From the NCBI GenBank assembly GCA_040375445.1, contig JBEISK010000001.1, forward strand, positions 49,144 to 113,143: DNA of 64,000 nucleotides, written 5' to 3'. Of this stretch, positions 4,427 through 64,000 are shown piece by piece; position 1 is the stretch's first letter; each line of letters starts with the position of its first letter. The notes beneath the pieces are model-generated. The model did not search any database, was not told the DNA's origin, and saw only the letters and a program-made list of their open reading frames with translations. Origin of the DNA: Gammaproteobacteria bacterium. GTDB lineage: Bacteria; Cyanobacteriota; Vampirovibrionia; Vampirovibrionales; JAJTHC01. Made by a program: the position numbers and the translations under genes.

Positions 4427-6202
4427 ATGCACCCTGTGGCACTTGCCCCCTCTCACTTTAAGCGAAAATCGTCGTCCTTAGACGGTGTGCCGTGGTGGGT
4501 CATTTTACTAGGGGTCATCGGTCTTTTCTTCTTAGTGGCACCGATTTTGCCTTATGAGTCCCTACGTTTTGAAGCCCATCACATAGCGGTCCTGGTGGGG
4601 ATGCCCTTCCAAGTATCGTTGGCGTGGATGCCCCCTATTTTAGGGGTCTTGGGTTTAGCGTCTTTTGCAGGCATCACCCAACGCTTATTTGCCTTGCACA
4701 ATAAGCCTTTATTGGGAGCGGTTTTGATTAGCACCAGTAGTGTGGGTATTCTGGTGATGCTGCTTTCGCCGAGCTTGGCTTTGATGCAGTGGGCATTTAC
4801 GATGATCACGCTGTATCTGACCCTGCGATGGTGGCAGTGGCGAGTCGCCACGCATGCCAGTCCGTTGTCGCCGTGGCAATGGCAAGACATGGTGATAGGG
4901 CTAATTTTGGGGAGCTTAGGAGCCGTTGTGGGAGTGCTTCCCCTGCTATTGTGCTTGGGGAGCTTGGCATTGTGGTTTATGAATGCGACGTCTCGGCGTT
5001 TTACGGTTTTGTCATGGTGGGAAAACTATCGTGGGGTCACGGTTTCGACCTTAGCCACGTTGATTTTAGGCACAGTACTCGGTGGCTTTTTGGGCAGAGG
5101 CTGGGAAACGTTCGCCCCTGTGCAAGCGATGCCCTGTGACCTGTCGATGCTTGAAAATACCGCCTTGTTTGGGGTGAATCTCTTGATGGTGTCCTTCCCT
5201 TGGAATGGTATGATTGCGTATGCGTTGTGGAATTGGGTGAGTAATTTGTCTTACCACGGCAAAGAAGGGCAACTTTTTGATGAGCGAGATTTACCCTTAC
5301 ATCAAGAAGCCTTGTGGTGGAGCTTGGGTATGGCCGGTATCTTGATTTACGGGGTTTTAAGTCATCGAGACACGAGCCTTGCCGTATTGTTGGGAGGGTG
5401 TTTGGCGGCTTGGTATGGGGGGCATATCGTCGATCGTTCCACGCAGTTGCTGGTGCCTCCCAAAGGGCTAAAACGGCTTTGTGATTTGACCCCCTTGTTT
5501 TTATTGGGTTTGGGCGTTTTAGGGGCGTGGTCAATGCTCACTCAAGTGCCTGACGCCTATTTGAGCGATGCCCCGTGGATGCTGGCGGGGTCTCCTGTGG
5601 TTGGCGATTTAGGCGAAAAAGCAGGCAAGTTTGGGACATTTTTAGGGGCTTTGCCGTTGTGGAAATTGTGGTTATTGACGCTCCCTTTATGGTGTTTAAT
5701 CGGTAGTGCGGGCATGGTGAGTCTTCAATTTGTGACGTTTTCCATGTACCGTACGATGAGCGTGTTCGCAGGCTGGAGCCTTATTTACACCGTCTTGTTG
5801 TTTGCGGTGCAATGGCCGATTACGCATCCGCCTTACACGCCAGCCCATCACGCCTTACTTGACGCATTTGACCCTAATCCTACCACTCAAAACACCCAGA
5901 TACAGGGGATCCCGCCTTATATTTTAAGAACAGAGGGGGCATCGTTAGAAATGGCTTTGTACGGACTGTCGCCTGAAAACCGTTTTTATCAAGAAAGAGG
6001 CGATAACGCTACGATTCACTCGCAAGCTGTCCAACTTTTGCCTGTGCATTACATGGGCATGACCCGATCGAATCTCTTGTATTATAGCTTTTTGGATATT
6101 TTGCCGTTTCTTTCGCATGTGGGGGTGCATCATTTTGTGTTAGAATATCTACCTGTAAGGCGGTTTGTAGAACCTGCCGTTGAAGAAGCAGAGAGGCCTT
6201 AG
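4427..6202 (+). CDS. polytopic inner-membrane protein (at least 12 predicted TM segments), Trp-rich; possible glycan polymerase or GT-C-type enzyme of the downstream glycan cluster
   Basis: 591 aa, highly hydrophobic with many helices. Its stop abuts the start of the GT2 gene (TAGATG). No family could be assigned by eye. Confidence 0.55.
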   Translation: MHPVALAPSHFKRKSSSLDGVPWWVILLGVIGLFFLVAPILPYESLRFEAHHIAVLVGMPFQVSLAWMPPILGVLGLASFAGITQRLFALHNKPLLGAVLISTSSVGILVMLLSPSLALMQWAFTMITLYLTLRWWQWRVATHASPLSPWQWQDMVIGLILGSLGAVVGVLPLLLCLGSLALWFMNATSRRFTVLSWWENYRGVTVSTLATLILGTVLGGFLGRGWETFAPVQAMPCDLSMLENTALFGVNLLMVSFPWNGMIAYALWNWVSNLSYHGKEGQLFDERDLPLHQEALWWSLGMAGILIYGVLSHRDTSLAVLLGGCLAAWYGGHIVDRSTQLLVPPKGLKRLCDLTPLFLLGLGVLGAWSMLTQVPDAYLSDAPWMLAGSPVVGDLGEKAGKFGTFLGALPLWKLWLLTLPLWCLIGSAGMVSLQFVTFSMYRTMSVFAGWSLIYTVLLFAVQWPITHPPYTPAHHALLDAFDPNPTTQNTQIQGIPPYILRTEGASLEMALYGLSPENRFYQERGDNATIHSQAVQLLPVHYMGMTRSNLLYYSFLDILPFLSHVGVHHFVLEYLPVRRFVEPAVEEAERP

Positions 6203-35434: not shown

Positions 35435-36289
35435 TTATCTAAGTAACTGTATCGCCAAGTTCGGAGCCTGATTGGCTTGACCAAGAACGGTTGCCGCTGC
35501 CTGTTGAAGAATCTGATTCTTAGTCATTTCAGCGGATTCCTTCGCCACATCCACGTTGCGGATGCGTGATTCACTGGCACTGAAGTTCTCGATCGAAATC
35601 GCTAAGTTCGTGCTAGCGGAAGTCAAACGATTACTCAAAGCACCAATAGACGCTCTTCGGTTACCGACACGCTGAAGGGCAATGTCAATCTTTGAAATCG
35701 CTTTCAAAGAAGAGGCGTTAGTGGTCACGCCGAACGCGACAACCGTACCTGAACCAATCCCTAAGCTGGTTTTGCTCAAAGTTCCTAAAGCCGATTGAGC
35801 TGAACCAATGTCTAAGATGTTGGTCCCTGAAGCGGATTCCGCTCCGACCTGAATTTTGAAAGTGGCGACAGAAGAAAAGAGCTTCTTCCCGTTAAATTCA
35901 GTGGCTTTGGCGATACGATCAACATCATTGGTCAGCTGTAACAATTCCTTGTTAATCGCTGAACGCTGATCGACACCGAGCGTATCGTTGGCCCCTTGTA
36001 CAGCAAGTTCACGCATACGTTGCAGGTTATCTGTAATCGTACTGAGTGACCCGTCTGCCGTGTTAAGAACGTTAATACCGTCTTGCACGTTATCATTGGC
36101 TTTTTGACTGCCTCTGATTTGAGATCGTAACGTTTCAGAAATCTGCAAACCCGCCGCATCATCGGACGCTTTGTTGATTCTGAATCCAGATGACAACTTC
36201 TCAAGTGATTTGCCTAGGTCCATGGTGTTTTTACCCAACAGACGTTGTGCATTGAGAGATTGCACATTGGTATTGATTTGAATACCCAT
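35435..36289 (-). CDS. flagellin, short form (D0/D1 only, 284 aa), paralog 1
   Basis: N-terminus INTNVQSLNAQRLL...LSSGFRINKASDDAAGLQIS and C-terminus ...MTKNQILQQAAATVLGQANQAPNLAIQLLR are canonical flagellin termini. Confidence 0.9.
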   Translation of the reverse strand: MGIQINTNVQSLNAQRLLGKNTMDLGKSLEKLSSGFRINKASDDAAGLQISETLRSQIRGSQKANDNVQDGINVLNTADGSLSTITDNLQRMRELAVQGANDTLGVDQRSAINKELLQLTNDVDRIAKATEFNGKKLFSSVATFKIQVGAESASGTNILDIGSAQSALGTLSKTSLGIGSGTVVAFGVTTNASSLKAISKIDIALQRVGNRRASIGALSNRLTSASTNLAISIENFSASESRIRNVDVAKESAEMTKNQILQQAAATVLGQANQAPNLAIQLLR

Positions 36290-36467: not shown

Positions 36468-37322
36468 TTAACCAAGTAACTTCAAGGCAAGCTGAGGGGA
36501 TTGGTTGGCTTGAGACAAGACCGTCGCCGCCGCTTGTTGAAGAATCTGATTTTTGGTCATGTTGGCAGATTCTTTCGCCACATCCACGTTACGGATGCGT
36601 GATTCACTGGCACTGTAGTTCTCGATCGAAATCGCTAAGTTCTGGCTAGCGGAACCCAAACGATTGGTCAACGCACCAATAGAGGCTCTTCGGTTACCAA
36701 CGCGCTGAAGGGCGATATCGATCTTTGAAATCGCTTTCAAAGAAGAAGCGTTGGTCGTTACGCCAAAAGCAACCACTGTACCAGAACCGATACCCAAGCT
36801 AGTTTTACTTAAAGTGCCTAAGGCTGAGCTAGCTGAACCAATGTCTAAGACGTTGGTACCTGAAGCGGATTCCGCTCCGACCTGAATTTTGAAAGTAGCG
36901 ACAGAAGAAAAGAGCTTCTTCCCATTAAATTCAGTCGATTTAGCAATACGATCAATATCGTTCGTTAGCTGTAACAATTCCTTGTTAATCGCTGAACGTT
37001 GATCGACACCTAGCGTATCGTTTGCACCTTGTACGGCGAGTTCACGCATACGTTGAAGGTTGTCTGTAATCGTGCTAAGTGAGCCGTCTGCGGTATTCAA
37101 AACGTTAATGCCGTCTTGAACGTTATCGTTGGCTTTTTCACTACCACGAATCTGAGATCTTAGGACTTCAGAAATCTGTAAACCAGCGGCATCATCCGAA
37201 GATTTGTTGATTCTGAATCCAGACGCTAACTGCTCTAAAGATTTGTTTAAGCCCATGGTGTTTTGGGTTAACAAACGTTGTGCATTAAGAGATTGCACGT
37301 TGGTATTAACATTAATAGGCAT
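36468..37322 (-). CDS. flagellin, short form (284 aa), paralog 2
   Basis: About 90% identical to paralog 1 at protein and DNA level. Own Shine-Dalgarno (AAGGAG). Confidence 0.9.
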   Translation of the reverse strand: MPINVNTNVQSLNAQRLLTQNTMGLNKSLEQLASGFRINKSSDDAAGLQISEVLRSQIRGSEKANDNVQDGINVLNTADGSLSTITDNLQRMRELAVQGANDTLGVDQRSAINKELLQLTNDIDRIAKSTEFNGKKLFSSVATFKIQVGAESASGTNVLDIGSASSALGTLSKTSLGIGSGTVVAFGVTTNASSLKAISKIDIALQRVGNRRASIGALTNRLGSASQNLAISIENYSASESRIRNVDVAKESANMTKNQILQQAAATVLSQANQSPQLALKLLG

Positions 37323-37772: not shown

Positions 37773-39572
37773 ATGCCGTCACTACCCATTTCTCCCTTCT
37801 TTATACCCCCAGCGGATGCCTTGCTTTATGTGCTAGCGTTTGTTTTGGGCATTAGAAGCACATGGATTTTATTTTCGGCTGAACAGGGACGCCGCCATGA
37901 CTTAACGTATCGCCCACCAGTCAAAGGGCAAGATTTTGACGTCAACATTGTGGTTCCCCTCATGCACGCCGATGATGATATGGCCTTACAAGATTTTTTA
38001 GCCTGCACGGCCGCACAGACGTATGAAAACGCCCGCATCCTTATTTTGGCTCATCCAGACGCCCAATGGATGCAAGAATCTCTAGAATTACCTGAAACGT
38101 GTCAGTGGATCAATGTACCGAGTACCTTTGCTCAAAACCAACAAAGCGTCTTAAGGTGGGGATTAAACCGCGTTTTAGCGATGCACCCTCCCCATCTATT
38201 TGTCTTGCTGGATGTTTATGATCTGATTAAACCTGATTTTCTAAGCCATGCCGTTTCGATTGCTTATCAACATGACGTGTATCAAGGCTATATGGCTCAT
38301 CGAGATTTTGGCGAAGGGGTTTTAAGTCGTAGCTTAGGTTTGTTGACTCGACTAAGGTCTCGCATTGAAAGCGTCGGTCGTTTTCATGGCGGCTTGGGCT
38401 TATTGTTTCGCCATAGCGGACTTGCCTTCAAGCCCAGTTTACTTGAGCGCTTCCCACTTGAACACCATCCTAGTCTGGGCTACGCCCCTTGGAGCATCAC
38501 GCTCAATCAAGCCAGTGCCCGTTTGCCCAGTATCAAAGTACATTGGGTACCTAGTATGATTGTGTATCAAAGGCATTACCCTGACGTATTTGCCCATGTC
38601 TCGCATGAAATAGAAGCCACCATCACTGTAGTGGCAGGGCTTATCAATCGTTTTATAAGACTCGCTCGCCCTCGTGAACTCGAGCAACGCTTGGCGATGC
38701 TGCCCACTAATTTAATTTTAAACACGATTTTGCTAGCCAGCATGGCAATTTTTGTACAACAAGGGTTATTCCCTGAAAAAGTAGGCACCCCTTTGGCATG
38801 GTCACTCTTAGCAGGCGGGCAAATGCTCTTATGGGGCATCACCTTAAGTGTCGCTCGCATTAAACCTGCAGACTGGTTGAGCTCGACCTTAATTGTCATG
38901 TCTGCCACCTTGCTGGAAATACTGGCTTTCCCTGTAGCCCTTGTGGGCTGGATCGTTCAAAAACTTAGTCGTCTGAATCAACCTCGTTCAAGTCACTATC
39001 AAGAGGCTCGTTCATTTTCAAAGCTCACTCCCCTGAAAGAATCCTTAGATGCTCATCGTGTTCAACCCAGGCTTGCTAGTGGAGTCTTGCCTGTAACACC
39101 ACAAACCAGCATATCTGCCCCTCAAACCTTAAACACACAAACACCGTTTGTCTTAACACTCGGCTCTCAAGAAATTGTTGCCGATATTAAGGTGGATATT
39201 AAACCCTGTTCCGAAGGCTTACTCTATGCCTTAACGTTGACGTATAAACAACAACGTTTTCAAACCCAACACACCCCAAAACTGGAAGACGCCTTTATTG
39301 AGTTAAGTCAAACCTTGTCTCACTATCAAATCCAACCCAAGACGTGTGGGAACTGTGCCTATTGGTTTGTAAATCAAGCCACCCGTCCTCTTGTGGAAGG
39401 ATTACCCAAGCAAGGAACTTGCCTAAAAAACAAGCAGGGTAAAGTCTTAAGTATGGATGATGTCGCCTTAAACGTGCTTTCTGTCCCATGTGAAGCACAC
39501 ACCGAACGCCATCAACATGAAGCGGTTGTGCAGGCGTGGAAAGAGAGCCTTGAAAACCTTGCGAAAATGTAA
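37773..39572 (+). CDS. membrane protein with N-terminal TM anchor, GT2-like (GT-A) domain, a central multi-TM region and a C-terminal Cys-containing domain
   Basis: VNIVVPLMHADDD...TYENARILIL and LLDVYD (DXD-like) resemble family-2 glycosyltransferases. Hydrophobic stretches around aa 300-390. C-terminal CGNCAYW...C...C. Confidence 0.45.
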   Translation: MPSLPISPFFIPPADALLYVLAFVLGIRSTWILFSAEQGRRHDLTYRPPVKGQDFDVNIVVPLMHADDDMALQDFLACTAAQTYENARILILAHPDAQWMQESLELPETCQWINVPSTFAQNQQSVLRWGLNRVLAMHPPHLFVLLDVYDLIKPDFLSHAVSIAYQHDVYQGYMAHRDFGEGVLSRSLGLLTRLRSRIESVGRFHGGLGLLFRHSGLAFKPSLLERFPLEHHPSLGYAPWSITLNQASARLPSIKVHWVPSMIVYQRHYPDVFAHVSHEIEATITVVAGLINRFIRLARPRELEQRLAMLPTNLILNTILLASMAIFVQQGLFPEKVGTPLAWSLLAGGQMLLWGITLSVARIKPADWLSSTLIVMSATLLEILAFPVALVGWIVQKLSRLNQPRSSHYQEARSFSKLTPLKESLDAHRVQPRLASGVLPVTPQTSISAPQTLNTQTPFVLTLGSQEIVADIKVDIKPCSEGLLYALTLTYKQQRFQTQHTPKLEDAFIELSQTLSHYQIQPKTCGNCAYWFVNQATRPLVEGLPKQGTCLKNKQGKVLSMDDVALNVLSVPCEAHTERHQHEAVVQAWKESLENLAKM

Positions 39573-41001: not shown

Positions 41002-42228
41002 ATGTTTTTTGAAGGCAAGCACATTGTTTTAGGCGTTTGCGGAGGCATTGCCGCTTATAAAAGTGGCGATTTGATTCGTGAACTCCAACGCAAGGGAGCC
41101 TCAGGCGTGCATCCCATTCTTTCGCAAGACGCCCCCCACTTCATCACCGCCTTGACGCTGTCTAGCCTAAGCAAGTACCCTGCCACAAGCGAGCATCACG
41201 CCGTGGATGCTCAAGGCGTTCCCCTGCATATTAGTTTAGCTCAATGGGGCGACGTACTCCTCATTTACCCCGCCACGGCTAATCTTATTGCTCAACTGGC
41301 TCAAGGCTTAACGGGCGATTTAGTGACGGCAAGCGCCTTGTGCTTCTACGAAAAGCCGATTGTCCTGAGTCCTGCCATGAATACCCGTATGTGGGAACAC
41401 CCCTTGACCCAACGTAATTTAGCCACCTTGGCAAGCTTGCCCAACGTGCATCTCGTGCCACCCACCGAAGGCTTACTCGCCTGTGGCGAAACAGGGGCAG
41501 GGCATCTCGCCCCTGATGAGTGGACGCTTTTAACGCTTTACCGAGCCGTGCATCCTCATAATAGACGCCTCGCAGGCAAAAAAATACTCATCACCGCAGG
41601 AGGCACGCAAGAAGCTTTGGATCCTGCACGCATTTTGACCAATAAATCCAGCGGTAAAATGGGGCTGGCCCTTGCCGATGAAGCCTACGCCATGGGGGCA
41701 GAGCTCACCTTAATTACGGCTAATGAACAACACTTAGGCCTGCGTCCGTTCCCCACGATTTTGGCGAAAGATGTTGAATCGATGAAAAACGCTGTTTTAG
41801 AACAGTTTCCTTCACACGATTGGCTACTAAAAGCGGCAGCCGTGAGTGATTTTAAGCCCGTTCAGCCTCAAGGCTCTAAAATTAAAAAGCACGCCAACGC
41901 CACCCCCTATGTGCTAGAACTAGAAGCCACGGTAGATATTTTAAAAACGGCGTGTGATCAAAAACAGTCGCATCAAAAGGTGTTGGGCTTTGCCGCTGAA
42001 AGTGAAACAGGGGATTTACAGCCTCTTTACGACAAGCTGCAGCGCAAGGGGGCTGATGCCTTAGCCGTGAACAACATCAACCGAAGCGATATTGCCTTTC
42101 ATAGTGAAGAGAATGAAGTCCAATTGCTTTTTGCACAAGACACGCCCGCCCCTGTATTCATTGAAAAAGCGGGGAAAGACGTGGTGGCTCGTCACTTGCT
42201 CGCTCAGCTCGCAGACGTCTGGCCTTAG
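41002..42228 (+). CDS. coaBC: bifunctional phosphopantothenoylcysteine decarboxylase / phosphopantothenate-cysteine ligase
   Basis: N-terminal flavoprotein motif KHIVLGVCGGIAAYKS. C-terminal CoaB domain (ILITAGGTQEALDPARILTNKSSGKMG). Confidence 0.9.
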   Translation: MFFEGKHIVLGVCGGIAAYKSGDLIRELQRKGASGVHPILSQDAPHFITALTLSSLSKYPATSEHHAVDAQGVPLHISLAQWGDVLLIYPATANLIAQLAQGLTGDLVTASALCFYEKPIVLSPAMNTRMWEHPLTQRNLATLASLPNVHLVPPTEGLLACGETGAGHLAPDEWTLLTLYRAVHPHNRRLAGKKILITAGGTQEALDPARILTNKSSGKMGLALADEAYAMGAELTLITANEQHLGLRPFPTILAKDVESMKNAVLEQFPSHDWLLKAAAVSDFKPVQPQGSKIKKHANATPYVLELEATVDILKTACDQKQSHQKVLGFAAESETGDLQPLYDKLQRKGADALAVNNINRSDIAFHSEENEVQLLFAQDTPAPVFIEKAGKDVVARHLLAQLADVWP

Positions 42229-43718
42229 ACGATTTGAGGGGTCTGCCGTAAAAATGTTTCGGGCTTAGGCGATTCGTAATAAGGAGTAGGGATTTTTTGG
42301 GCAGGAGCATCTGTATGCCCTTTAGGGGAAGGACTTTCCTTCGATGTACTGGAGGAATGTCCTTCAGGGGGGGCACTGGCCGGAGAAGAGCCCCCTCCGC
42401 CGCCAAAAGTAATCGAAGGGAGTCTGGCGCCTGAATGCCCTAATTCAAAAAAGCTTCCTACAGCAACCGCAATAATGCCTCCAAAAATACCCCAGCCCAG
42501 TAATCGGTCAGGAGAAGGAATGTATCTTAAGAACTTGCTAATGGTGTCTTTCTTTTTCATACTCATGACTTCATGGGGATCAATGCCAAAGGGAAGTAGG
42601 TTTGATAATTTATGAGTGGACTTTCCTAAAGTCGGCTGTGGCAGTGGAGCCTTCAACTGCACATCCCCTTCTATAGATCCTCCTCCTGTTACGTCGCACC
42701 AAATACGCCCAATTAATCTTGTAAGAGACCATGTAGAAATACTTTGTTTCGCCCTGTTCGCTTTATATCCTAAATCTATAGACGGCTTATCTACAATTTT
42801 TGTTTCTATTTCTTGAAACCTCACTTCACCTGAATGGTCTTGCACAGCTTGATAAACTCGACAAATTCTTTGTCCATTTTCATTTGTTTTAATCTGCAAC
42901 GGTTGACCGGGACCTGCTTTCGCTCTGTAAAAGGTGTTATCGGCATCTCTAAACTTCACATCAAGGTATTTGGAACCATTTTCTGTATGTTTTGGGTCAA
43001 TTTCTGCGACTTCAGTAAAACCACTAAATAAATACCCCATAAAACCTGGTTTATTCGACTTCATGACAAGCAAACGATCTAAAGGACTCGCTTGATGCCC
43101 TTCTCCTCCAAAGAAACCTGCGGGATTGGTTGTTTTACTTTTTTTGTGCATGACTTTGTAATAGTACCCATCCTCGCTTCTTCCTTGAAGAATCTGGCCG
43201 GGAACAAGCTCCCCAGTAGTATTTTCAGAGTGACGGATCTTCTGAAAATGCAATAACGCGGTAATGAGGGCCCCTAAGCTAAAACCTTCGCTAAAGTGGC
43301 CCATTAAGTTCAGCGTACTGCCCTGTAAAAACTGAATGGTCGACTCGTCTTTTTCGTTCAAAAAGACTTGCGACATCAATCGATTTAAAATAGGATCCTT
43401 TTCTACACGAGCCAGCTCATCGTCTTTTTTGCCGTCTTTTTCTTCCGTCTGTTCGTTGCTTCCCTTTTTACGTTGACTGCTCAACGCTAAAGATGCTTTC
43501 GCCGCATTGCTAAAATCGTTATGAGCTTCTTCATGTCCTCCGCCATGTTCGCCGTGTTCCCCACCATAACCATGTGTTGCCACACTTTTTGTAAGAGCGG
43601 CATGCGTCATGCCTTCAGCATCCCCATTGCGTTGTGTGGATTGCATATTTGCCATATAAGGGCGTGAAAACGCCTGAGAGAAGGAAAGCATCAAAAAAAA
43701 TCCTTTCAAAACACACAA
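42225..43718 (-). CDS. hypothetical protein with a His/Gly-rich N-region, a GxSxG nucleophile-elbow-like motif, a C-terminal TM helix and a Gly/Ser/Pro-rich tail (candidate secreted/membrane lipase-like protein)
   Basis: HGYGGEHGEHGGGHEEAH, then LMGHFSEGFSLGALITALL (GFSLG = GxSxG), then LLGWGIFGGIIAVAVGSFF (TM), then GGGGGSSPASAPPEGHSSSTSKESPSP. AT-rich promoter region upstream (43719-43855). Confidence 0.5.
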   Translation of the reverse strand: MCVLKGFFLMLSFSQAFSRPYMANMQSTQRNGDAEGMTHAALTKSVATHGYGGEHGEHGGGHEEAHNDFSNAAKASLALSSQRKKGSNEQTEEKDGKKDDELARVEKDPILNRLMSQVFLNEKDESTIQFLQGSTLNLMGHFSEGFSLGALITALLHFQKIRHSENTTGELVPGQILQGRSEDGYYYKVMHKKSKTTNPAGFFGGEGHQASPLDRLLVMKSNKPGFMGYLFSGFTEVAEIDPKHTENGSKYLDVKFRDADNTFYRAKAGPGQPLQIKTNENGQRICRVYQAVQDHSGEVRFQEIETKIVDKPSIDLGYKANRAKQSISTWSLTRLIGRIWCDVTGGGSIEGDVQLKAPLPQPTLGKSTHKLSNLLPFGIDPHEVMSMKKKDTISKFLRYIPSPDRLLGWGIFGGIIAVAVGSFFELGHSGARLPSITFGGGGGSSPASAPPEGHSSSTSKESPSPKGHTDAPAQKIPTPYYESPKPETFLRQTPQIV

Positions 43719-56779: not shown

Positions 56780-57190
56780 TTATGATAATTTATTTATATG
56801 ACGTTTGTTAGGCGGTCCGAGTTTGGCAAGCAAATGCTTAACCGCATCATTCATTTGACAGCCTTGTGTGGATTCTGAAAAAAAGTTTTGATAATAACAT
56901 CCTGAACAATCCGCATTACGAACAAAACAAGAAACGGCTGAAGGAGACCACTGACGATAGGGACCTACACTATCTTCATCACTTTCAGCAACAATGTTGG
57001 CATCAATAATGTGGTCATGCCACTTGATTAAATTTTCAAGATTCAAATGAGGGTACTGCACCTTTAAAGCTCGAATAGATTGAGCGGTAACCGAAGCTGA
57101 AACGGCAACTAAGGCAGGGTGAGGCTTTAGTTCTTCAGTGGACTGTAACTGGACACGAGGTTCTTCTAGTGCGAGGGTTGCAGAGGCCAT
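56780..57190 (-). CDS. hypothetical Cys-rich protein
   Basis: 136 aa with CFVRNADCSGCYY...GCQ cysteine cluster. Lower GC than the window average. Confidence 0.4.
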   Translation of the reverse strand: MASATLALEEPRVQLQSTEELKPHPALVAVSASVTAQSIRALKVQYPHLNLENLIKWHDHIIDANIVAESDEDSVGPYRQWSPSAVSCFVRNADCSGCYYQNFFSESTQGCQMNDAVKHLLAKLGPPNKRHINKLS

Positions 57191-58222: not shown

Positions 58223-58522
58223 GAATACTGTTAAACTAGAGGGATTTAAAAAATTTCTATTATTAAATTAAATATAAATCATCATCATAGTAGTGTTTAA
58301 TAAATCTTGTTTAAAAGTCTTGTATTCCATCTATAGAGCAAATTAGCCTTTGTTTTAAACTTGTTAAAATAAGCTTTTTTAATCTGTTAAATAATTGTTT
58401 AAATCGTTAAGAAAAGTTTAAGTCTGTTAAGTAGTTTATGTATTCAACAAGGTTTTAAAAAGTTTGTGATAGATTTTGGAGCAGTGTTTTAGACAATGGT
58501 GTGTTTAAAAATTCAAAGCTAT

Positions 58523-60610
58523 TTAGCGACTACTATAAAAACCAGGTTTTGGAGCAGCTGGAAGTGTATAAGATGTTCTTTGAAAATCTGCTGGCGGAGG
58601 CGGAGGGCTTTTTGACTCTATCGCTTTATAGCTTGAAATAGCTTTTTTTTGCTCCATAGTGTTCGAGGATATATTGGGTTTTGATACGTTTGCATTGAAG
58701 TGTTGCCCGTTGTCTACTATACGAGGTGTTAGCATAATAATGAGTTCTTTGTTTTGATGAGATCCGTCGTAGGTATTGCTTAGTCCTCTAAGAAAAGGGA
58801 TTTCACCCAACACAGGAATTTTATTATTACGTTGACGGTCATTACTTTGGGTCAACCCTGCAATAACAAAACTTTGCCCTTCTTTAAGAATAACATTTTC
58901 AGTTAACCAAGCTCGTGAAGAAATAAGTTGAATATCTCCTGTGCTAGAGGTTTGAGGGAATGAAAATTGTGGCTGTACCATCATGGAAATATCGCCATTG
59001 GCACCAATTCGGCTCCGAATATGTAAAACAATACCTGCAGATGCCTGTTGAGCAACTCGAGCAACGATATTGTTATTTTGATCACGTACATCGGTAAAGC
59101 CCTGAATCACTTCATCTTCAATTTTAATGGTGGCATCTTCATTGTTAAGTAGTAAAACAGAAGGACGAGAAATCACCTTAAGCTTACTTTCTGAGTGTAT
59201 AAAATTTAGTATGGCACTAAAGTTAGATGTATTTTGAATGGGATTTTTAACAAAACTAGCGATAGAATTCCCATTTAAATTGGCATTAAATCCTAAGGTG
59301 ACTTGCTTCAGCCGTGCTTGAATGGAAGGTGTGATGATTTTATCTAAACTATCAGCAAGCTCAATAACAGCCATTTCAACATAGACTTGTTCACGTTGCC
59401 TGTCGAATTCTTGAATAAATTCGTCGGCTTTCGCCAATTGTTGAACCGTGGCAAAAATGGTAATGGTGTTAAGGCGGGTATCGGGTAAAATAATAGGTCC
59501 GTTACTTGAAACAGTAGCTTGTGCGTTTTGAATAGGTCTTGAACGTAAGGTATGATCGTTTGATGTGCCTTGCCCCTCTTTTAAGCCTTCACTTGTCAGG
59601 GGGATGGGATTTCCTGTGGGCGTACCTATATTCGCACCACCTGCTGCACCACCTGCCGCACCGCCTGCCGCACCGCCTGCCGCACCGCCTGCCGCACCGC
59701 CTGCCGCACCGCCTGCCGCACCGCCTGCCGCACCACCTGCTGCACCACCTGCCGCACCACCTGCCGCACCACCTGCTGCACCACCTGCCGCACCACCTGC
59801 CGCACCGCTAATCATAATGGGGGGCGTAGAACCATTCGAAAAAACGGTAGCGGTTAAGGCGCTAGCGACTTCATCGGCTCTTTGAAAGTTTAATCGCCAT
59901 GTTTTACTGGCACGTTGAACGTCAATTTCACTAACTAAGCGAGCGGCTTCTTGAGCTTCTTGAACATCTGTTCTTAGCATTACCCGATTGGTCATGGGGT
60001 CAGCAAGGGCAATCGCAATATTTTGTGAATTGCCGCTTGCTGATCCAGCACCGGAACTCGTATTTGTACCTTCTGCTGAAGCCGGAAAACTTCCTCCTTG
60101 TGTTTGAGAAGAGCCTCCTGCGGTATTTTGGGCATAGGAAAAAAGGGTTGCATTTAAATAATCCGCCACATAGGTAGCTGGCAAATGTTTAACTTGAATG
60201 AAATGTGTTTCTTGTTGTTTGATTCCATTAGACGTCGTCGATTGTCGAGTGGTGACAAATAACGTACCCTGTTCAACATGGTAGTACAATTTACCCATTT
60301 GCTTTAAAGAAAGTAAAACATCTTCAACCGAAACGCCTTTAAAATCAAGGTTAACGAGTCGTGTTAAGTCATTGCCTAAGACAATGTTAAATTGAGCTTG
60401 TGAAGCAACGGCTTTAAGGGCTTCATCCATAGGAATGTTATGTAAGGTTAAATTAAGGGGTGTTTTAATGTTAGGCAGTTTAAGTTCTTCAGCAAAGGCG
60501 TTTTGAAAGGGGGCTATTAACATCAAAACACTTAAAAAAATTATAAAACTATGCGAAAAACAGGTCTTCTGTTTTAGAGACAAGCAAAGTAAGCTTACAG
60601 ATTTGAGCAT
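58523..60610 (-). CDS. secretin (GspD/PilQ superfamily), paralog B, with (GGAA)12 low-complexity insertion
   Basis: N-terminal signal/TM. N0-like domain (LNLTLHNIPMDEALKAVASQAQFNIVLG...VNLDFKGVSVEDVLLSLKQMGKLYYHVEQGTLFV). C-terminal secretin domain (...VISRPSVLLLNNEDATIKIEDEV...KIPVLGEIPFLRGLS...LIIMLTPRIV). The ATG directly follows the TAA of the upstream secretin. Confidence 0.85.
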   Translation of the reverse strand: MLKSVSLLCLSLKQKTCFSHSFIIFLSVLMLIAPFQNAFAEELKLPNIKTPLNLTLHNIPMDEALKAVASQAQFNIVLGNDLTRLVNLDFKGVSVEDVLLSLKQMGKLYYHVEQGTLFVTTRQSTTSNGIKQQETHFIQVKHLPATYVADYLNATLFSYAQNTAGGSSQTQGGSFPASAEGTNTSSGAGSASGNSQNIAIALADPMTNRVMLRTDVQEAQEAARLVSEIDVQRASKTWRLNFQRADEVASALTATVFSNGSTPPIMISGAAGGAAGGAAGGAAGGAAGGAAGGAAGGAAGGAAGGAAGGAAGGAAGGAAGGAAGGANIGTPTGNPIPLTSEGLKEGQGTSNDHTLRSRPIQNAQATVSSNGPIILPDTRLNTITIFATVQQLAKADEFIQEFDRQREQVYVEMAVIELADSLDKIITPSIQARLKQVTLGFNANLNGNSIASFVKNPIQNTSNFSAILNFIHSESKLKVISRPSVLLLNNEDATIKIEDEVIQGFTDVRDQNNNIVARVAQQASAGIVLHIRSRIGANGDISMMVQPQFSFPQTSSTGDIQLISSRAWLTENVILKEGQSFVIAGLTQSNDRQRNNKIPVLGEIPFLRGLSNTYDGSHQNKELIIMLTPRIVDNGQHFNANVSKPNISSNTMEQKKAISSYKAIESKSPPPPPADFQRTSYTLPAAPKPGFYSSR
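59634..59806. repeat. 12-bp tandem DNA repeat (GCCGCACCGCCT and variants, about 14 copies), in-frame, encoding (GGAA)n in secretin B
   Basis: Read directly from the sequence. The unit length is a multiple of 3. GC-rich repeats in an AT-rich gene. Confidence 0.9.
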
Positions 60611-62542
60611 TTAAGGACGCTCCTTTGTATTGAGAGAAAATGAACTCGTATTGCCTATTGGGTACACTTGAGGGAGGGGGGTGCCGTTGTTTTTAATGTT
60701 TTCTAGGGCTTGAAAATCCCGATCGATACGGTGAATAGGCGTTAGTTCAAGTTGATTAAGAATGTGGGGTGTAATTAGAATGAGTAATTCGCTTTTTGCA
60801 CTTGAACTGGCACTGGCTCTAAACATTGCTCCGACAATGGGTAAATCCGCCAGTCCTGGTATTTTCTGTTCGTTACTGGTGTCTCGAGCATCGACGAGTC
60901 CACCGATGACCATGCTTTCACCATCTTTTACACTAACCGCTTGAGCCACTAAATCACGGCTACGAACCAATTGAATAGAACTGGCACCTACGCCTGCACT
61001 CGCATATACCGAACTCACAATCGGACGAACACGCAAGGTGATGACACCATTCGCTCCTATTTTAGGTATGATATCTAAGGTAATGCCTGCGGATCCAATC
61101 AGTGGGGTGGTTTGTCCAAAAAATCCAGAACCTGACGCCGTGAATTCTTGTCCTCTCAATATCTGATCTGCAATAACAATCGCCGATTCTGTGTCATGGG
61201 TGGCGACAATATGGGGGCTTGCAATACTTTTTGCTTTGCCTGTTTGAATAAGGGCTTGAATCTGTAGATTAAGGTTGTCTACTTGAGGTACTTTTGGTAA
61301 GAAAGAGATATTATTACTTGTCCCAGGTGTTATGCTCCCTATATTAAAGCCCCAAGGACTTCCTGATTCGGTAAAATCTAATTTCATGCCCAGTTGTTTT
61401 AAAGCGGTTGAAGAGACTTCAATGAGATCCGCTTGAATAGAAACTTGTGGCGGTTTGGCATCTAATAAGGGTAGTAAGGATTCCGCTTCTTCAAGTTGAG
61501 ATTCTGTGGCTATAATCGTAAGCGTATTGTTTTTACTGTTGGGCATAACGATTGCCCCTAAGGTTTGCACTGTGTAAGTGGTTTGTGTTAAACCCTGAGT
61601 TCTGACTTTTATTTCTACACCACTCCCACCGCCAGAGCTACCACCACTAGTGCCACTCCCACCGCCAGAGCTACCACCACTAGTGCCACTCCCACCGCCA
61701 GAGCTACCACCACTAGCACCACTACTAGCACCACCAGAGCTACCACTACCGCCACCAGAATTACCTGTAATTTTATCTGCGCCACTACCTTCGGTCACGC
61801 CATTAAGGGTATCCGATACGCTGACTTGTGAAGTGACTCCATTAAGCCCAGCCGTCCCTCGATTACCAAAAACGACCGCTTCTAATTGACGAGCGACATC
61901 TAAAGCATGGGCGTAAGACAACTGATACACCCGTCGTAAACGAGGCACATCAAATTCGGGAATAGCTTTAAGTACCATTTTAACTTCATCATCTGTCCCA
62001 CTCACCACCAAGCTATTTTGGCGTTCATTGGCTTTGACGACAATACGTGTGGAGCCTGTGAATAAAGCGGTATTTAAAAAACTCGCCAACCATGCGGCAC
62101 TGGCATGTTGTAAGGCAATGGTCTTAGTATTGTAGCGATATAAACCGAGTTCTTGCCCCATGGCTTGCGAAGAAATCATCCAAATGTCTTTGCCGTAACT
62201 TTGTACACTTAGGCCGTGCATTCTTGCTAGGACTTTCAAGGCATCTAGCCCAGAGATACGATCTAGTTTTAGGGAGGCATTGCCAGTGACGCTTTCATCC
62301 ATAAGCACATTTAAGTGACTAAGTTTGGCAATTTTAGGAATCAATTCGTTTAAAGGTTCTCCTGTGGCTTCAATACTAATTAAGCCTTGACCTTCTGGGT
62401 ACACTTGGGCAAACGCTTCTGCTATTTGCGGATTTACTATAGCTAATAGGACGTATTGTAGGGTAAGTCCCCCTACAAGAATCAACCTTATTAAGTAAGG
62501 TAGAGTGCTAAGTACAGGCGTCCAAGGTGTACGTGTTGACAT
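60611..62542 (-). CDS. secretin (GspD/PilQ superfamily), paralog A, with Gly/Ser-rich repeat insertion
   Basis: N0-like domain (ISIEATGEPLNELIPKIAKLSHLNVLMDESVTGNASLKLDRISGLDALKVLARMHGLSV). Secretin core (...IASPHIVATHDTESAIVIAD...KIPGLADLPIVGAMFR...LLILITPHIL). GSGTSGGSSGG repeated three times. Confidence 0.85.
   Translation of the reverse strand: MSTRTPWTPVLSTLPYLIRLILVGGLTLQYVLLAIVNPQIAEAFAQVYPEGQGLISIEATGEPLNELIPKIAKLSHLNVLMDESVTGNASLKLDRISGLDALKVLARMHGLSVQSYGKDIWMISSQAMGQELGLYRYNTKTIALQHASAAWLASFLNTALFTGSTRIVVKANERQNSLVVSGTDDEVKMVLKAIPEFDVPRLRRVYQLSYAHALDVARQLEAVVFGNRGTAGLNGVTSQVSVSDTLNGVTEGSGADKITGNSGGGSGSSGGASSGASGGSSGGGSGTSGGSSGGGSGTSGGSSGGGSGVEIKVRTQGLTQTTYTVQTLGAIVMPNSKNNTLTIIATESQLEEAESLLPLLDAKPPQVSIQADLIEVSSTALKQLGMKLDFTESGSPWGFNIGSITPGTSNNISFLPKVPQVDNLNLQIQALIQTGKAKSIASPHIVATHDTESAIVIADQILRGQEFTASGSGFFGQTTPLIGSAGITLDIIPKIGANGVITLRVRPIVSSVYASAGVGASSIQLVRSRDLVAQAVSVKDGESMVIGGLVDARDTSNEQKIPGLADLPIVGAMFRASASSSAKSELLILITPHILNQLELTPIHRIDRDFQALENIKNNGTPLPQVYPIGNTSSFSLNTKERP
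61615..61760. repeat. 33-bp tandem DNA repeat (3 copies plus a degenerate fourth), in-frame, encoding GS-rich linker in secretin A
   Basis: CACTCCCACCGCCAGAGCTACCACCACTAGTGC repeated at 61621, 61654 and 61687. Confidence 0.85.
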
Positions 62543-62562
62543 CGTTATTTTCCTAAAGAGGT

Positions 62563-63762
62563 TTATACATTTCCTAAGTCATTGAGCAAGCTTTCGATAC
62601 TAGATTCTTCGCGACTTGCATTAGGCATCGATTTCTGAGGGGGAGTACTTGAAATATTATTGTTTCTTGAAGAACTTGTTTGAGATGAAGAGGCACTAGA
62701 CAGTTCTACACGACTCTTAAAACCGTTAATCATTAGGTATAGGTAGGATCCTTTTACAGAAGTCAACGTAAAGTAGTTTCCGCCGTATTCAAAAGAACTG
62801 CCAATACGTTTGGAAAGCATAATGTTATTAGTTTCGTTGAGGAGTTTAAGTAAAATGGTGGCTGGTTTACGAGGGTCTTCATTGGAAACCACACCGACAA
62901 ACTGAATTAAGGATTCTACAGGTACACCCAAACTAGTTTCAACAGGCTTACTTGGAAAGGGTTTGACGTTTTGTGGTTTTTCAGGATTTGAAATAACTTG
63001 GGTATTTTTTTGATCATTTTGTTTGTCTAAAAGATTTTTCAACCACTCTAGCTCAATAAGAGGTTTAAAAGGGTCATTGCGAAAGGGGGCGACTTTGGGT
63101 TTTCTCTTAGAAGTACTTGTTTCAAGACTATTTGCTACCGCAAATAAGGCGTTGGCCTTTAAGCTTTCTTCACTTCCATCGAAATTTTCTTCAGGCAAGG
63201 AGGCTGCTAAAAGGGTTTGATTTTGAGTCGTTTCTTCAGGGGGGGGTTTGATGAGATGGGTCATCCCTACCACCATTAAAACGAGGGCGACCCCTAATGA
63301 GGTTCCTGCAATAAAAAGGGCATTTTTCATACTTTTGTGTGGATCAATAAAGCGATTAAGTTGAGAAAAATAGCGTGTAATGGGATGCTGCCCTGCGGCG
63401 ATTTTTTCAGCTTCAAGGGCTTCCCATTCTAGTGGGGCTTGAACAAAATTAAGCATGGCAGTGAAATTTCGTTGGGCAGGAATAATCCCATAGCCCGGTT
63501 GAAAGGCTCGTGTTTTGGCGACATCATGCCACGAGGTGGAAGCCGTGCTAAAGGCACTGGCTTGACGAGGCAACTTATTTTGCAAAGGCGAACTAGACAT
63601 AGGGTAAGACTCTTTCACACCATTTTGGACTCTCTTACTGTTTAGTATAAGGAATAGGGGAGTCTTCTTGGGTTTTTGAGGTCTAATTTCCCCTAAAAAG
63701 CTTAAGCCAAAACGGGGGTTGAACAGGCGCGTTTGTAACCGTTTGTAAAAAAAGGGCATCAA
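62563..63762 (-). CDS. bitopic membrane protein with C-terminal secretin-interacting-like (GspC HR / PilP-like) domain; first gene of the secretin operon
   Basis: Single TM (ALFIAGTSLGVALVLMVVGMTHLI), Pro/Thr-rich linker, C-terminal beta-rich segment (ATILLKLLNETNNIMLSKRIGSSFEYGGNYFTLTSVKGSYLYLMINGFKSRVEL), Ser-rich tail. Promoter-like AT-rich region upstream. The real start is likely an internal Met. Confidence 0.4.
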   Translation of the reverse strand: MMPFFYKRLQTRLFNPRFGLSFLGEIRPQKPKKTPLFLILNSKRVQNGVKESYPMSSSPLQNKLPRQASAFSTASTSWHDVAKTRAFQPGYGIIPAQRNFTAMLNFVQAPLEWEALEAEKIAAGQHPITRYFSQLNRFIDPHKSMKNALFIAGTSLGVALVLMVVGMTHLIKPPPEETTQNQTLLAASLPEENFDGSEESLKANALFAVANSLETSTSKRKPKVAPFRNDPFKPLIELEWLKNLLDKQNDQKNTQVISNPEKPQNVKPFPSKPVETSLGVPVESLIQFVGVVSNEDPRKPATILLKLLNETNNIMLSKRIGSSFEYGGNYFTLTSVKGSYLYLMINGFKSRVELSSASSSQTSSSRNNNISSTPPQKSMPNASREESSIESLLNDLGNV

Positions 63763-64000
63763 AAAAAGAAGGACGACCCTTTATGCCTTTGTGTTACAAT
63801 AAGGCTGTGTTTTTATTTTAGTAGGTTCATGGCCAAACAGGTCTAGGTAGATCATATGCAAATACAATCCAGTTCACTCCTCTCCTCTCCTCTCCTTATG
63901 CTTCATCTGTCGCAGCGCCTCAATCGACCTTAGTGGGGCAGCGGGCGTCTCTTTCCTCTCAACGCCAAGGGTCAAGGCACGCAACATTCGCGAAGGAATT

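Follow-up and report, generated by a model that had tools for sequence, protein, structure and literature searches.

When two different secretins are encoded head to tail behind a single adaptor gene, do their products build one outer-membrane channel or two? The question is raised by the 64-kb stretch of contig JBEISK010000001.1 analysed here (the window), in which three consecutive open reading frames (ORFs) on the minus strand (58523-63762) encode a predicted inner-membrane protein, X, and two secretins, A and B. Type II and type III secretion, type IV pili, competence systems, and the export of filamentous phages all use a secretin as their outer-membrane gate. The X-A-B trio is most likely the outer-membrane module of a type IV filament machine of the type IV pilus or type II secretion kind, and both secretins are most likely needed together. 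Because the trio is kept intact across the whole order Vampirovibrionales, it suggests a two-component secretin channel that has not been described before; in the literature on tandem, duplicated, heteromeric, or second secretins and on the secretins of Vampirovibrio and Melainabacteria, no such pair was found.

Two secretin genes behind one adaptor gene

Gene X (62563-63600, minus strand), read from the ATG at 63600, encodes a bitopic inner-membrane protein of 345 residues, the adaptor of the module. An alternative in-frame TTG at 63762 would extend the product to 399 residues (62563-63762); the ATG is probably the start, because the relatives are called at 345 to 355 residues and conservation begins at that methionine. 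After a gap of 20 nt follow secretin A (60611-62542, minus strand; 643 residues; ORF and Pfam evidence) and secretin B (58523-60610, minus strand; 695 residues; ORF, Pfam, and AlphaFold model), and the whole trio spans about 5.1 kb. The A/B junction (60608-60625, minus strand) has the form expected for translational coupling: in the sequence cct-TAA-ATG-ctc, the stop codon of A (60611-60613) abuts the start codon of B (60608-60610), and an AAGGAG motif (60620-60625) lies 9 nt upstream of the B ATG. This stop/start abutment had been noticed in an earlier reading of the same DNA made from the letters and their ORFs (the sequence-only reading), and only its place is refined by the codon positions given above. 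Promoter and terminator scans from 58.1 to 64 kb gave counts near the shuffled expectation and no convincing operon boundaries. A (CTCCT)4 tract of the plus strand, read as (AGGAG)4 in the direction of X, lies at 63877-63896, upstream of X in a divergent intergenic region at the window edge.

Both A and B are full-length secretins. Against the Pfam Secretin profile (PF00263; cut-off, 27.5 bits), A scores 113.9 bits (E = 7.9e-33, residues 430 to 595) and B scores 115.3 bits (E = 2.9e-33, residues 472 to 633), covering profile positions 1 to 168 and 3 to 169 of 169, respectively; Secretin_N is matched at 72.9 bits (E = 2.5e-20) by A and at 39.1 bits by B (cut-off, 28.2 bits). A consists of a signal peptide, N0 (approximately residues 55 to 125), N1 (residues 139 to 202), N3 with a Gly/Ser insert (approximately residues 205 to 360), and the secretin domain. 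The corresponding parts of B are a signal peptide, N0 (residues 51 to 121), N1 (residues 134 to 229), N3 (residues 234 to 404), and the secretin domain (residues 408 to 632), with a disordered Pro-rich tail. In the AlphaFold model of B, the mean predicted local distance difference test score (pLDDT) is 56.6, with the domains at 70 to 87, and Foldseek matches the model to full-length InvG, PulD, GspD, BfpB, and PilQ with a probability of 1.0. In front of the barrel, both proteins have what marks a member of the secretin superfamily: a signal peptide, an N0 domain, and one or more ring-building domains of the Secretin_N kind. Their domain order is identical, and their sequences are only 27% identical over N3 and the secretin core and 21% identical over N0-N1. 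The view of the sequence-only reading that two full-length, head-to-tail, diverged secretin paralogs follow a bitopic protein, each with an N0-like domain and a canonical secretin core, is therefore upheld by the profile searches, the A/B alignment, the B model, and Foldseek. A single gene split by a sequencing error was considered and is ruled out, since a signal peptide and a full domain set are present in each ORF and two separate genes are found again in 33 independent assemblies.

The class of the two secretins is less definite than their family. For both, the NCBIfam models rank GspD first and PilQ second, all far below the curated cut-offs: A and B score 201.1 and 151.8 bits with the GspD model TIGR02517 (cut-off, 351.35) and 163.9 and 119.8 bits with the PilQ model TIGR02515 (cut-off, 284.35). 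NCBIfam and sequence comparison with solved secretins gave similar, sub-cut-off scores and assigned neither protein to the type II secretion system, type IV pilus, type III secretion system, or Tad class.

Protein X is tethered by a single transmembrane helix (63250-63321, minus strand; residues 94 to 117, ALFIAGTSLGVALVLMVVGMTHLI), which was located by sequence and alignment and spans residues 91 to 114 in the model. The segment of approximately 93 residues in front of the helix is conserved in the alignment and probably cytoplasmic. Behind the helix, the periplasmic linker carries a conserved F-R-N-D-P-F-K-P-L motif (63058-63084, minus strand), of which the form R-x-(D/N)-P-(F/L)-x-P is common to all aligned X-like proteins, and then follow a beta-rich domain and a short conserved C-terminal helix. 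The beta-rich domain (62692-62931, minus strand; residues 224 to 303) has seven strands and is modelled with a pLDDT of 70 to 86, whereas the full-length model is poor outside it (mean pLDDT, 43.9). As modelled, residues 224 to 303 are recognisably an HR domain of the GspC/PilP type. The best Foldseek match is PilP of the Myxococcus machine, and the best structural matches also include the HR domains of GspC and PulC bound to secretin N0. When ten diverse X-like proteins were combined into a profile, its best PDB match was 2LNV, the HR structure of GspC (OutC) (E = 0.017, over the whole domain), and two homologues give sub-threshold matches to the Pfam families, that of locus L025 to T2SSC (E = 7.8e-4, 19.7 bits; cut-off, 27) and that of locus L041 to PilP (E = 0.18). 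X is an inner-membrane-tethered protein with the HR beta-sandwich fold, encoded beside a secretin; the GspC-HR/PilP-like domain claimed by the sequence-only reading stands as a fold and does not extend to a sequence-model match at threshold. Its HR domain presumably binds the secretin N0 domain, by analogy with the GspC-GspD and PilP-PilQ complexes, in which this fold contacts N0, and with the entries 3oss and 6hcg, deposited as complexes of such an HR domain with the secretin, in which HR is known to contact N0. The C-termini of X-like proteins (62566-62598 in the window, and in loci L017, L030, and L041) end in a short, conserved amphipathic motif that is predicted to be helical (IESLLNDLGNV, ELIKLLRQLNQP, and IEEIDKLLDSF), which may be a docking peptide.

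Compared with GspC-GspD, X shares the topology of GspC (cytoplasmic N-terminus, one helix, and a periplasmic HR domain), and GspD is the best-scoring model for both secretins. Unlike GspC, X has no detected PDZ or coiled-coil domain; unlike GspD, which has three ring-building N domains after N0 (N1 to N3), A and B have only two; and unlike GspC-GspD systems, the trio has two secretins, with no S-domain or pilotin seen. Neither the 64-kb window nor the 10-kb flanks of 32 related loci contain a gsp operon (GspE, GspF, GspG, and the rest). In comparison with PilP-PilQ of the type IVa pilus (Myxococcus, Pseudomonas, and Neisseria), X differs in having a transmembrane helix instead of a lipid anchor, and the trio has two secretins instead of one, both with scores far under the PilQ cut-off. 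In place of a pilMNOPQ-type cluster, X alone lies upstream of the secretins, with no PilM, PilN, or PilO alongside, and there is no match to an AMIN domain, which many PilQ proteins carry.

Conservation and origin of the trio

An exact-sequence look-up of secretin A returned no match, and relatives were found by homology; a homologue search with B, overwhelmed by low-complexity words, failed to return the closest orthologues, which were recovered from the loci instead. The best named matches belong to the melainabacterial order Vampirovibrionales. Scanning species-representative genomes yielded 32 loci, almost all labelled Vampirovibrionales, Vampirovibrio, or Melainabacteria and including three V. 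chlorellavorus assemblies (NCIMB 11383, Vc_AZ_2, and Umea1_bin-2013) and Vampirovibrio sp. OL03a, the genome of which is closed (CP050876.1); metagenome contigs supplied further examples. The X-like gene, A, and B are found in fixed order in all 33 loci long enough to judge (in three loci that look like exceptions, the contig stops directly behind the first secretin), with one adaptor gene only per secretin pair. The stop codon of A and the start codon of B touch or overlap (distance of 0 nt or less) in 20 of 32 loci and are at most 60 nt apart in 31. The flanking genes differ between lineages, being RNase HII/GlgB and LipB/GHL10 in the window's group, NDH-1 and enolase in OL03a, and a polysaccharide synthesis gene, GlpD, and PrpD in V. 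chlorellavorus; the trio thus relocates and persists as one block. In none of the loci is a PilB or PilC homologue present within 10 kb of the trio. Prepilin-type genes with the class III signal motif G↓FTLAELL occur 2 to 2.5 kb downstream of B in three lineages (L027, 6769-8648; L020, 16630-17256; L025, 16367-16909), and these are the only local pilin link found. Two trio-type loci from metagenome-assembled genomes labelled Coleofasciculaceae and Oculatellaceae (L033 and L037) cluster inside the Vampirovibrionales secretin clades and are probably contaminating contigs from associated predators.

In a neighbour-joining tree, the secretins at positions 1 and 2 form two clades with matching internal topology, and the pairwise distances within the A and B clades correlate with r = 0.98. 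A and B are 23 to 45% identical in most genomes, and each clade keeps its own conserved motifs. These mirror-image clades show one ancient secretin duplication, which apparently took place before the order diversified. The exception is L030 (9809-14100), where the two secretins in tandem, 56% identical, group with one another and not with the A and B clades, suggesting either gene conversion or that the gene was re-duplicated independently; this contig is labelled Gammaproteobacteria, probably through a binning error. All three genes are under purifying selection: in comparisons with relatives, the ratio of nonsynonymous to synonymous substitution rates (dN/dS) is 0.10 to 0.15 for A, 0.11 to 0.18 for B, and 0.15 to 0.26 for X; against the most distant relatives, where the comparison is saturated, B reaches 0.28 and X reaches 0.32.

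The nearest outgroup secretins are single genes from other probable Melainabacteria (the GroEL of L041 is 73% identical to that of the window) and are the closest sequence relatives of the combined A and B clade in the tree. They lie in operons of an X-like gene, the secretin, PilB (MshEN and T2SSE), PilC (T2SSF), and prepilins (L040 and L041), and the upstream gene shares with X the R-x-D/N-P-F motif and an HR-like domain. Unlike the trio, these single secretins are physically linked to the ATPase, platform, and pilins. This layout ties the secretin family to type IV filament machines, and the trio looks like a detached derivative of the X-secretin part of such an operon, in which the secretin was then duplicated in tandem. 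The published table of V. chlorellavorus pilus genes (PMC4451040, Table S3) lists a pulD-pulE-pulF cluster and also a second pulE/pulF pair next to which no secretin is listed, together with two pilT, two Tad loci, about 40 prepilins, and one pulD only. The tandem secretin pair appears to be missing from this table, because the sole listed pulD adjoins pulE and pulF, while the neighbourhood of the V. chlorellavorus trio (L039) holds neither. Since V. chlorellavorus has a listed cluster in the L040/L041 order besides the trio, the trio would be an extra, detached derivative.

Glycine-rich tracts and neighbouring genes

Both secretins are interrupted by in-frame, low-complexity repeats. In B, Tandem Repeats Finder locates a 12-bp repeat at 59633-59806 (minus strand; unit GGYGGTGCRGCA, 14.5 copies) that encodes (GGAA)14, where the sequence-only reading had rightly seen an in-frame 12-bp repeat and had counted 12 units instead of the 14 obtained by unit listing. 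The tract lies in the alpha1-beta2 loop of N3; in the model, residues 260 to 367 (approximately 108 residues) are disordered between the helix 245 to 255 and the strand 373 to 377. In A, a 33-bp repeat at 61620-61746 (minus strand) encodes G(T/A)SGGSSGGGS units in a low-complexity loop; it too was correctly read as an in-frame insertion, and its three copies become 3.8 (two perfect, one near-perfect, and one degenerate) in Tandem Repeats Finder. A second Ser/Gly/Thr insert of B (60020-60124, minus strand; residues 163 to 197), found by a low-complexity scan and disordered in the model, lies in the alpha1-beta2 loop of N1. Throughout the clade, both paralogs carry inserts rich in Gly, Ser, and Ala in these two loops, and the unit and length of the inserts vary freely.

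Copy number varies among strains, as the sequence-only reading had proposed. The B tract is (GGAA)n with 14, 11, and 9 units in the window, L010, and L001, respectively, yet the A proteins of these strains are 95 to 96% identical to that of the window. It is (GGAS)n with about 9 to 14 units in L003, L004, L011, and L012, and (GGGA)n with about 12 to 20 units in L009 and L013. L003 and L004 have identical A proteins and differ in B by 8 residues (two units), and A of L001 has one 33-bp unit fewer than A of the window. Because units of 12 and 33 bp keep the reading frame, such changes give length-variable linkers and not on/off switches; no frame-shifting unit is present in either tract. The small basic repeats of Neisseria PilQ (PAKQQAAA, 2 to 7 copies) are similar in being short in-frame tandem repeats of strain-variable copy number in the N-terminal periplasmic part of a secretin that keeps its function (PMC3031610). 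Here, in contrast, the units are rich in Gly, Ala, and Ser (GGAA, GGAS, GGGA, and the 11-residue Gly/Ser unit) and lie inside N-domain loops, both paralogs carry tracts, and the unit type itself differs between lineages.

The rest of the window is ordinary chromosome. It encodes GroEL, dTDP-rhamnose genes, LpxI/LpxB, AroK/AroB, MlaE, RecA, an M50 protease, Def, the NDH-1 operon, two flagellins, CoaBC, GlmS, two M16 peptidases, a GHL10 protein, and LipB, and Rfam and tRNA scans of the window gave no matches. No ATPase, platform, or pilin gene is found in its 64 kb. The window ends approximately 240 bp upstream of the three ORFs (read from the TTG of X), and on that side the syntenic relatives have no ATPase, platform, or pilin gene within 10 kb; the claim that only the outer-membrane module is local, with no ATPase, platform, or pseudopilin gene within 10 kb, is borne out by the window and these relatives together. 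The two tandem flagellin genes (35435-36289 and 36468-37322, minus strand) each encode 284 residues with Flagellin_N and Flagellin_C, and the organism is therefore flagellated as well as secretin-bearing. Between the convergent ends of lipB and B, the 300-bp spacer 58223-58522 contains short imperfect tandem repeats of 13, 20, and 23 bp. An ORF of 136 residues with several Cys and no Pfam match (56780-57190, minus strand) is conserved between lipB and GHL10 in L001 and L003, and three large ORFs (4427-6202, 37773-39572, and 42225-43718; 591, 599, and 497 residues) have no Pfam match at an E value of 0.001 or lower.

One channel or two

We favour, tentatively and at slightly under an even chance, a reading in which A and B form one physically associated outer-membrane complex, most simply a mixed ring, and not two independent pores. 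Genes for the subunits of one complex would be expected to be strictly co-retained and adjacent, coupled stop to start, and accompanied by a single adaptor, as A and B are over the history of the order, and the reading is favoured for this reason. Its strict form, an obligately heteromeric secretin in which the paralogs co-assemble, for example alternating in an even-numbered ring, with one GspC/PilP-like adaptor, is plausible and somewhat doubtful. The main rival, in which A and B form two separate homo-oligomeric channels that share X and a promoter but work for different filaments or substrates (for instance two kinds of pilus, or one pilus beside a route for secretion or DNA uptake), is only somewhat less likely. 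Each paralog keeps its signal peptide, N0, two N domains, and full secretin domain, so each could form its own ring, and their identity is low in most genomes; Vampirovibrio genomes are reported with many prepilins, two PulE/PulF pairs, and two PilT. The solved secretin structures returned by the searches here are, moreover, all rings of a single secretin protein. Against two channels, the secretins of different systems are normally encoded with those systems and not together, whereas A and B stay together in all 33 loci although the trio has relocated repeatedly, their stop and start codons are usually coupled, and there is only one adaptor gene for the pair. Other results weigh against a shared complex with X as its adaptor. 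Odd ring symmetries (13 or 15) would bar strict A/B alternation. Cognate inner-membrane components were located neither in the 64-kb window nor in the 10-kb flanks of the relatives. X matches no Pfam or NCBIfam model, including T2SSC (PF11356) and PilP (PF04351) at threshold; a PDB sequence search with X alone gave noise, and HMMER with the X alignment against 1.84 billion representative proteins yielded only 6 relatives and nothing that connects X to PilP or GspC. The one hetero-oligomeric secretin complex that the literature yielded, that of Deinococcus radiodurans, in which DR_0774 is joined by a DR_1364 belt and a DR_0940 cap, sets a precedent for such an outer-membrane assembly, with different proteins arranged in 15-fold rings, but its extra subunits are small non-secretin lipoproteins and not a second secretin paralog (PMC10828601).

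It is improbable that B (or A) is an accessory protein and not a pore subunit, that is, a secretin-derived scaffold, an assembly factor, or an extra periplasmic gate. B does evolve faster than A in the window's clade (identity to L015, 64% for A and 46% for B), has 92 strongly conserved columns against 136 in A, and has a relaxed C-terminal LPIVGAmFR-type motif; it nevertheless matches the whole Pfam Secretin profile as strongly as A (115 versus 114 bits), folds as a full-length secretin in the Foldseek comparison, and is under the same purifying selection. The trio could also be an orphan remnant on a horizontally acquired low-GC island, without partners and possibly without function. Composition and the lack of partner genes nearby speak for this: the GC contents of X, A, and B are 0.41, 0.45, and 0.43 (ORF mean, 0.47), those at third codon positions (GC3) are 0.35, 0.35, and 0.30 (ORF mean, 0.47), and GC and especially GC3 stay under the window mean from about 54 kb to the end of the window, including the 54-63.7 kb part that holds the trio. 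The GC content of 35 to 40% estimated by the sequence-only reading is right in placing the trio below the ORF mean, while a value near 35% holds only for lipB (0.353), and the AT-rich spacer 58223-58522 is lower (0.233). Low GC does not mean recent import here, because the trio occurs throughout the order and its A and B trees agree, relatives at 76% identity keep it in synteny with lipB, GHL10, and the M16 peptidases, and the GC content of the trio follows that of its flanks in ten other genomes (0.43 to 0.56). The horizontally acquired island was rejected on these grounds, which overturns that part of the sequence-only reading, and with purifying selection on all three genes, the orphan remnant is largely refuted and very improbable.

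Under the single-complex reading, the operon, which is inherited vertically across the order, would be a self-contained unit encoding the periplasm-to-outer-membrane part of a filament machine of a Vampirovibrionales bacterium. X would be anchored in the inner membrane by its one helix and would dock through its HR domain onto secretin N0, and it would thereby link the pore to an ATPase, platform, and pilin set encoded elsewhere in the genome. A and B would be made together from one transcript through stop-start coupling, and both would be required. The Gly/Ala/Ser tracts would be disordered alpha1-beta2 loops of the ring-building N domains, the length of which drifts by repeat slippage with function unharmed.

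If this is true, an obligately heteromeric ring would be the first secretin pore built of two different secretin subunits, and long, length-variable Gly-rich loops from both subunits would lie in its periplasmic chamber. The retention of two diverged secretins in one operon with one adaptor throughout an order offers a natural test case for whether heteromeric secretin rings are possible, how subunit interfaces co-evolve after duplication, and how ring symmetry is set, and the small size of the trio should suit co-expression tests. The lineage includes the algal predator Vampirovibrio chlorellavorus, the attack apparatus of which is understood only from genome inference.

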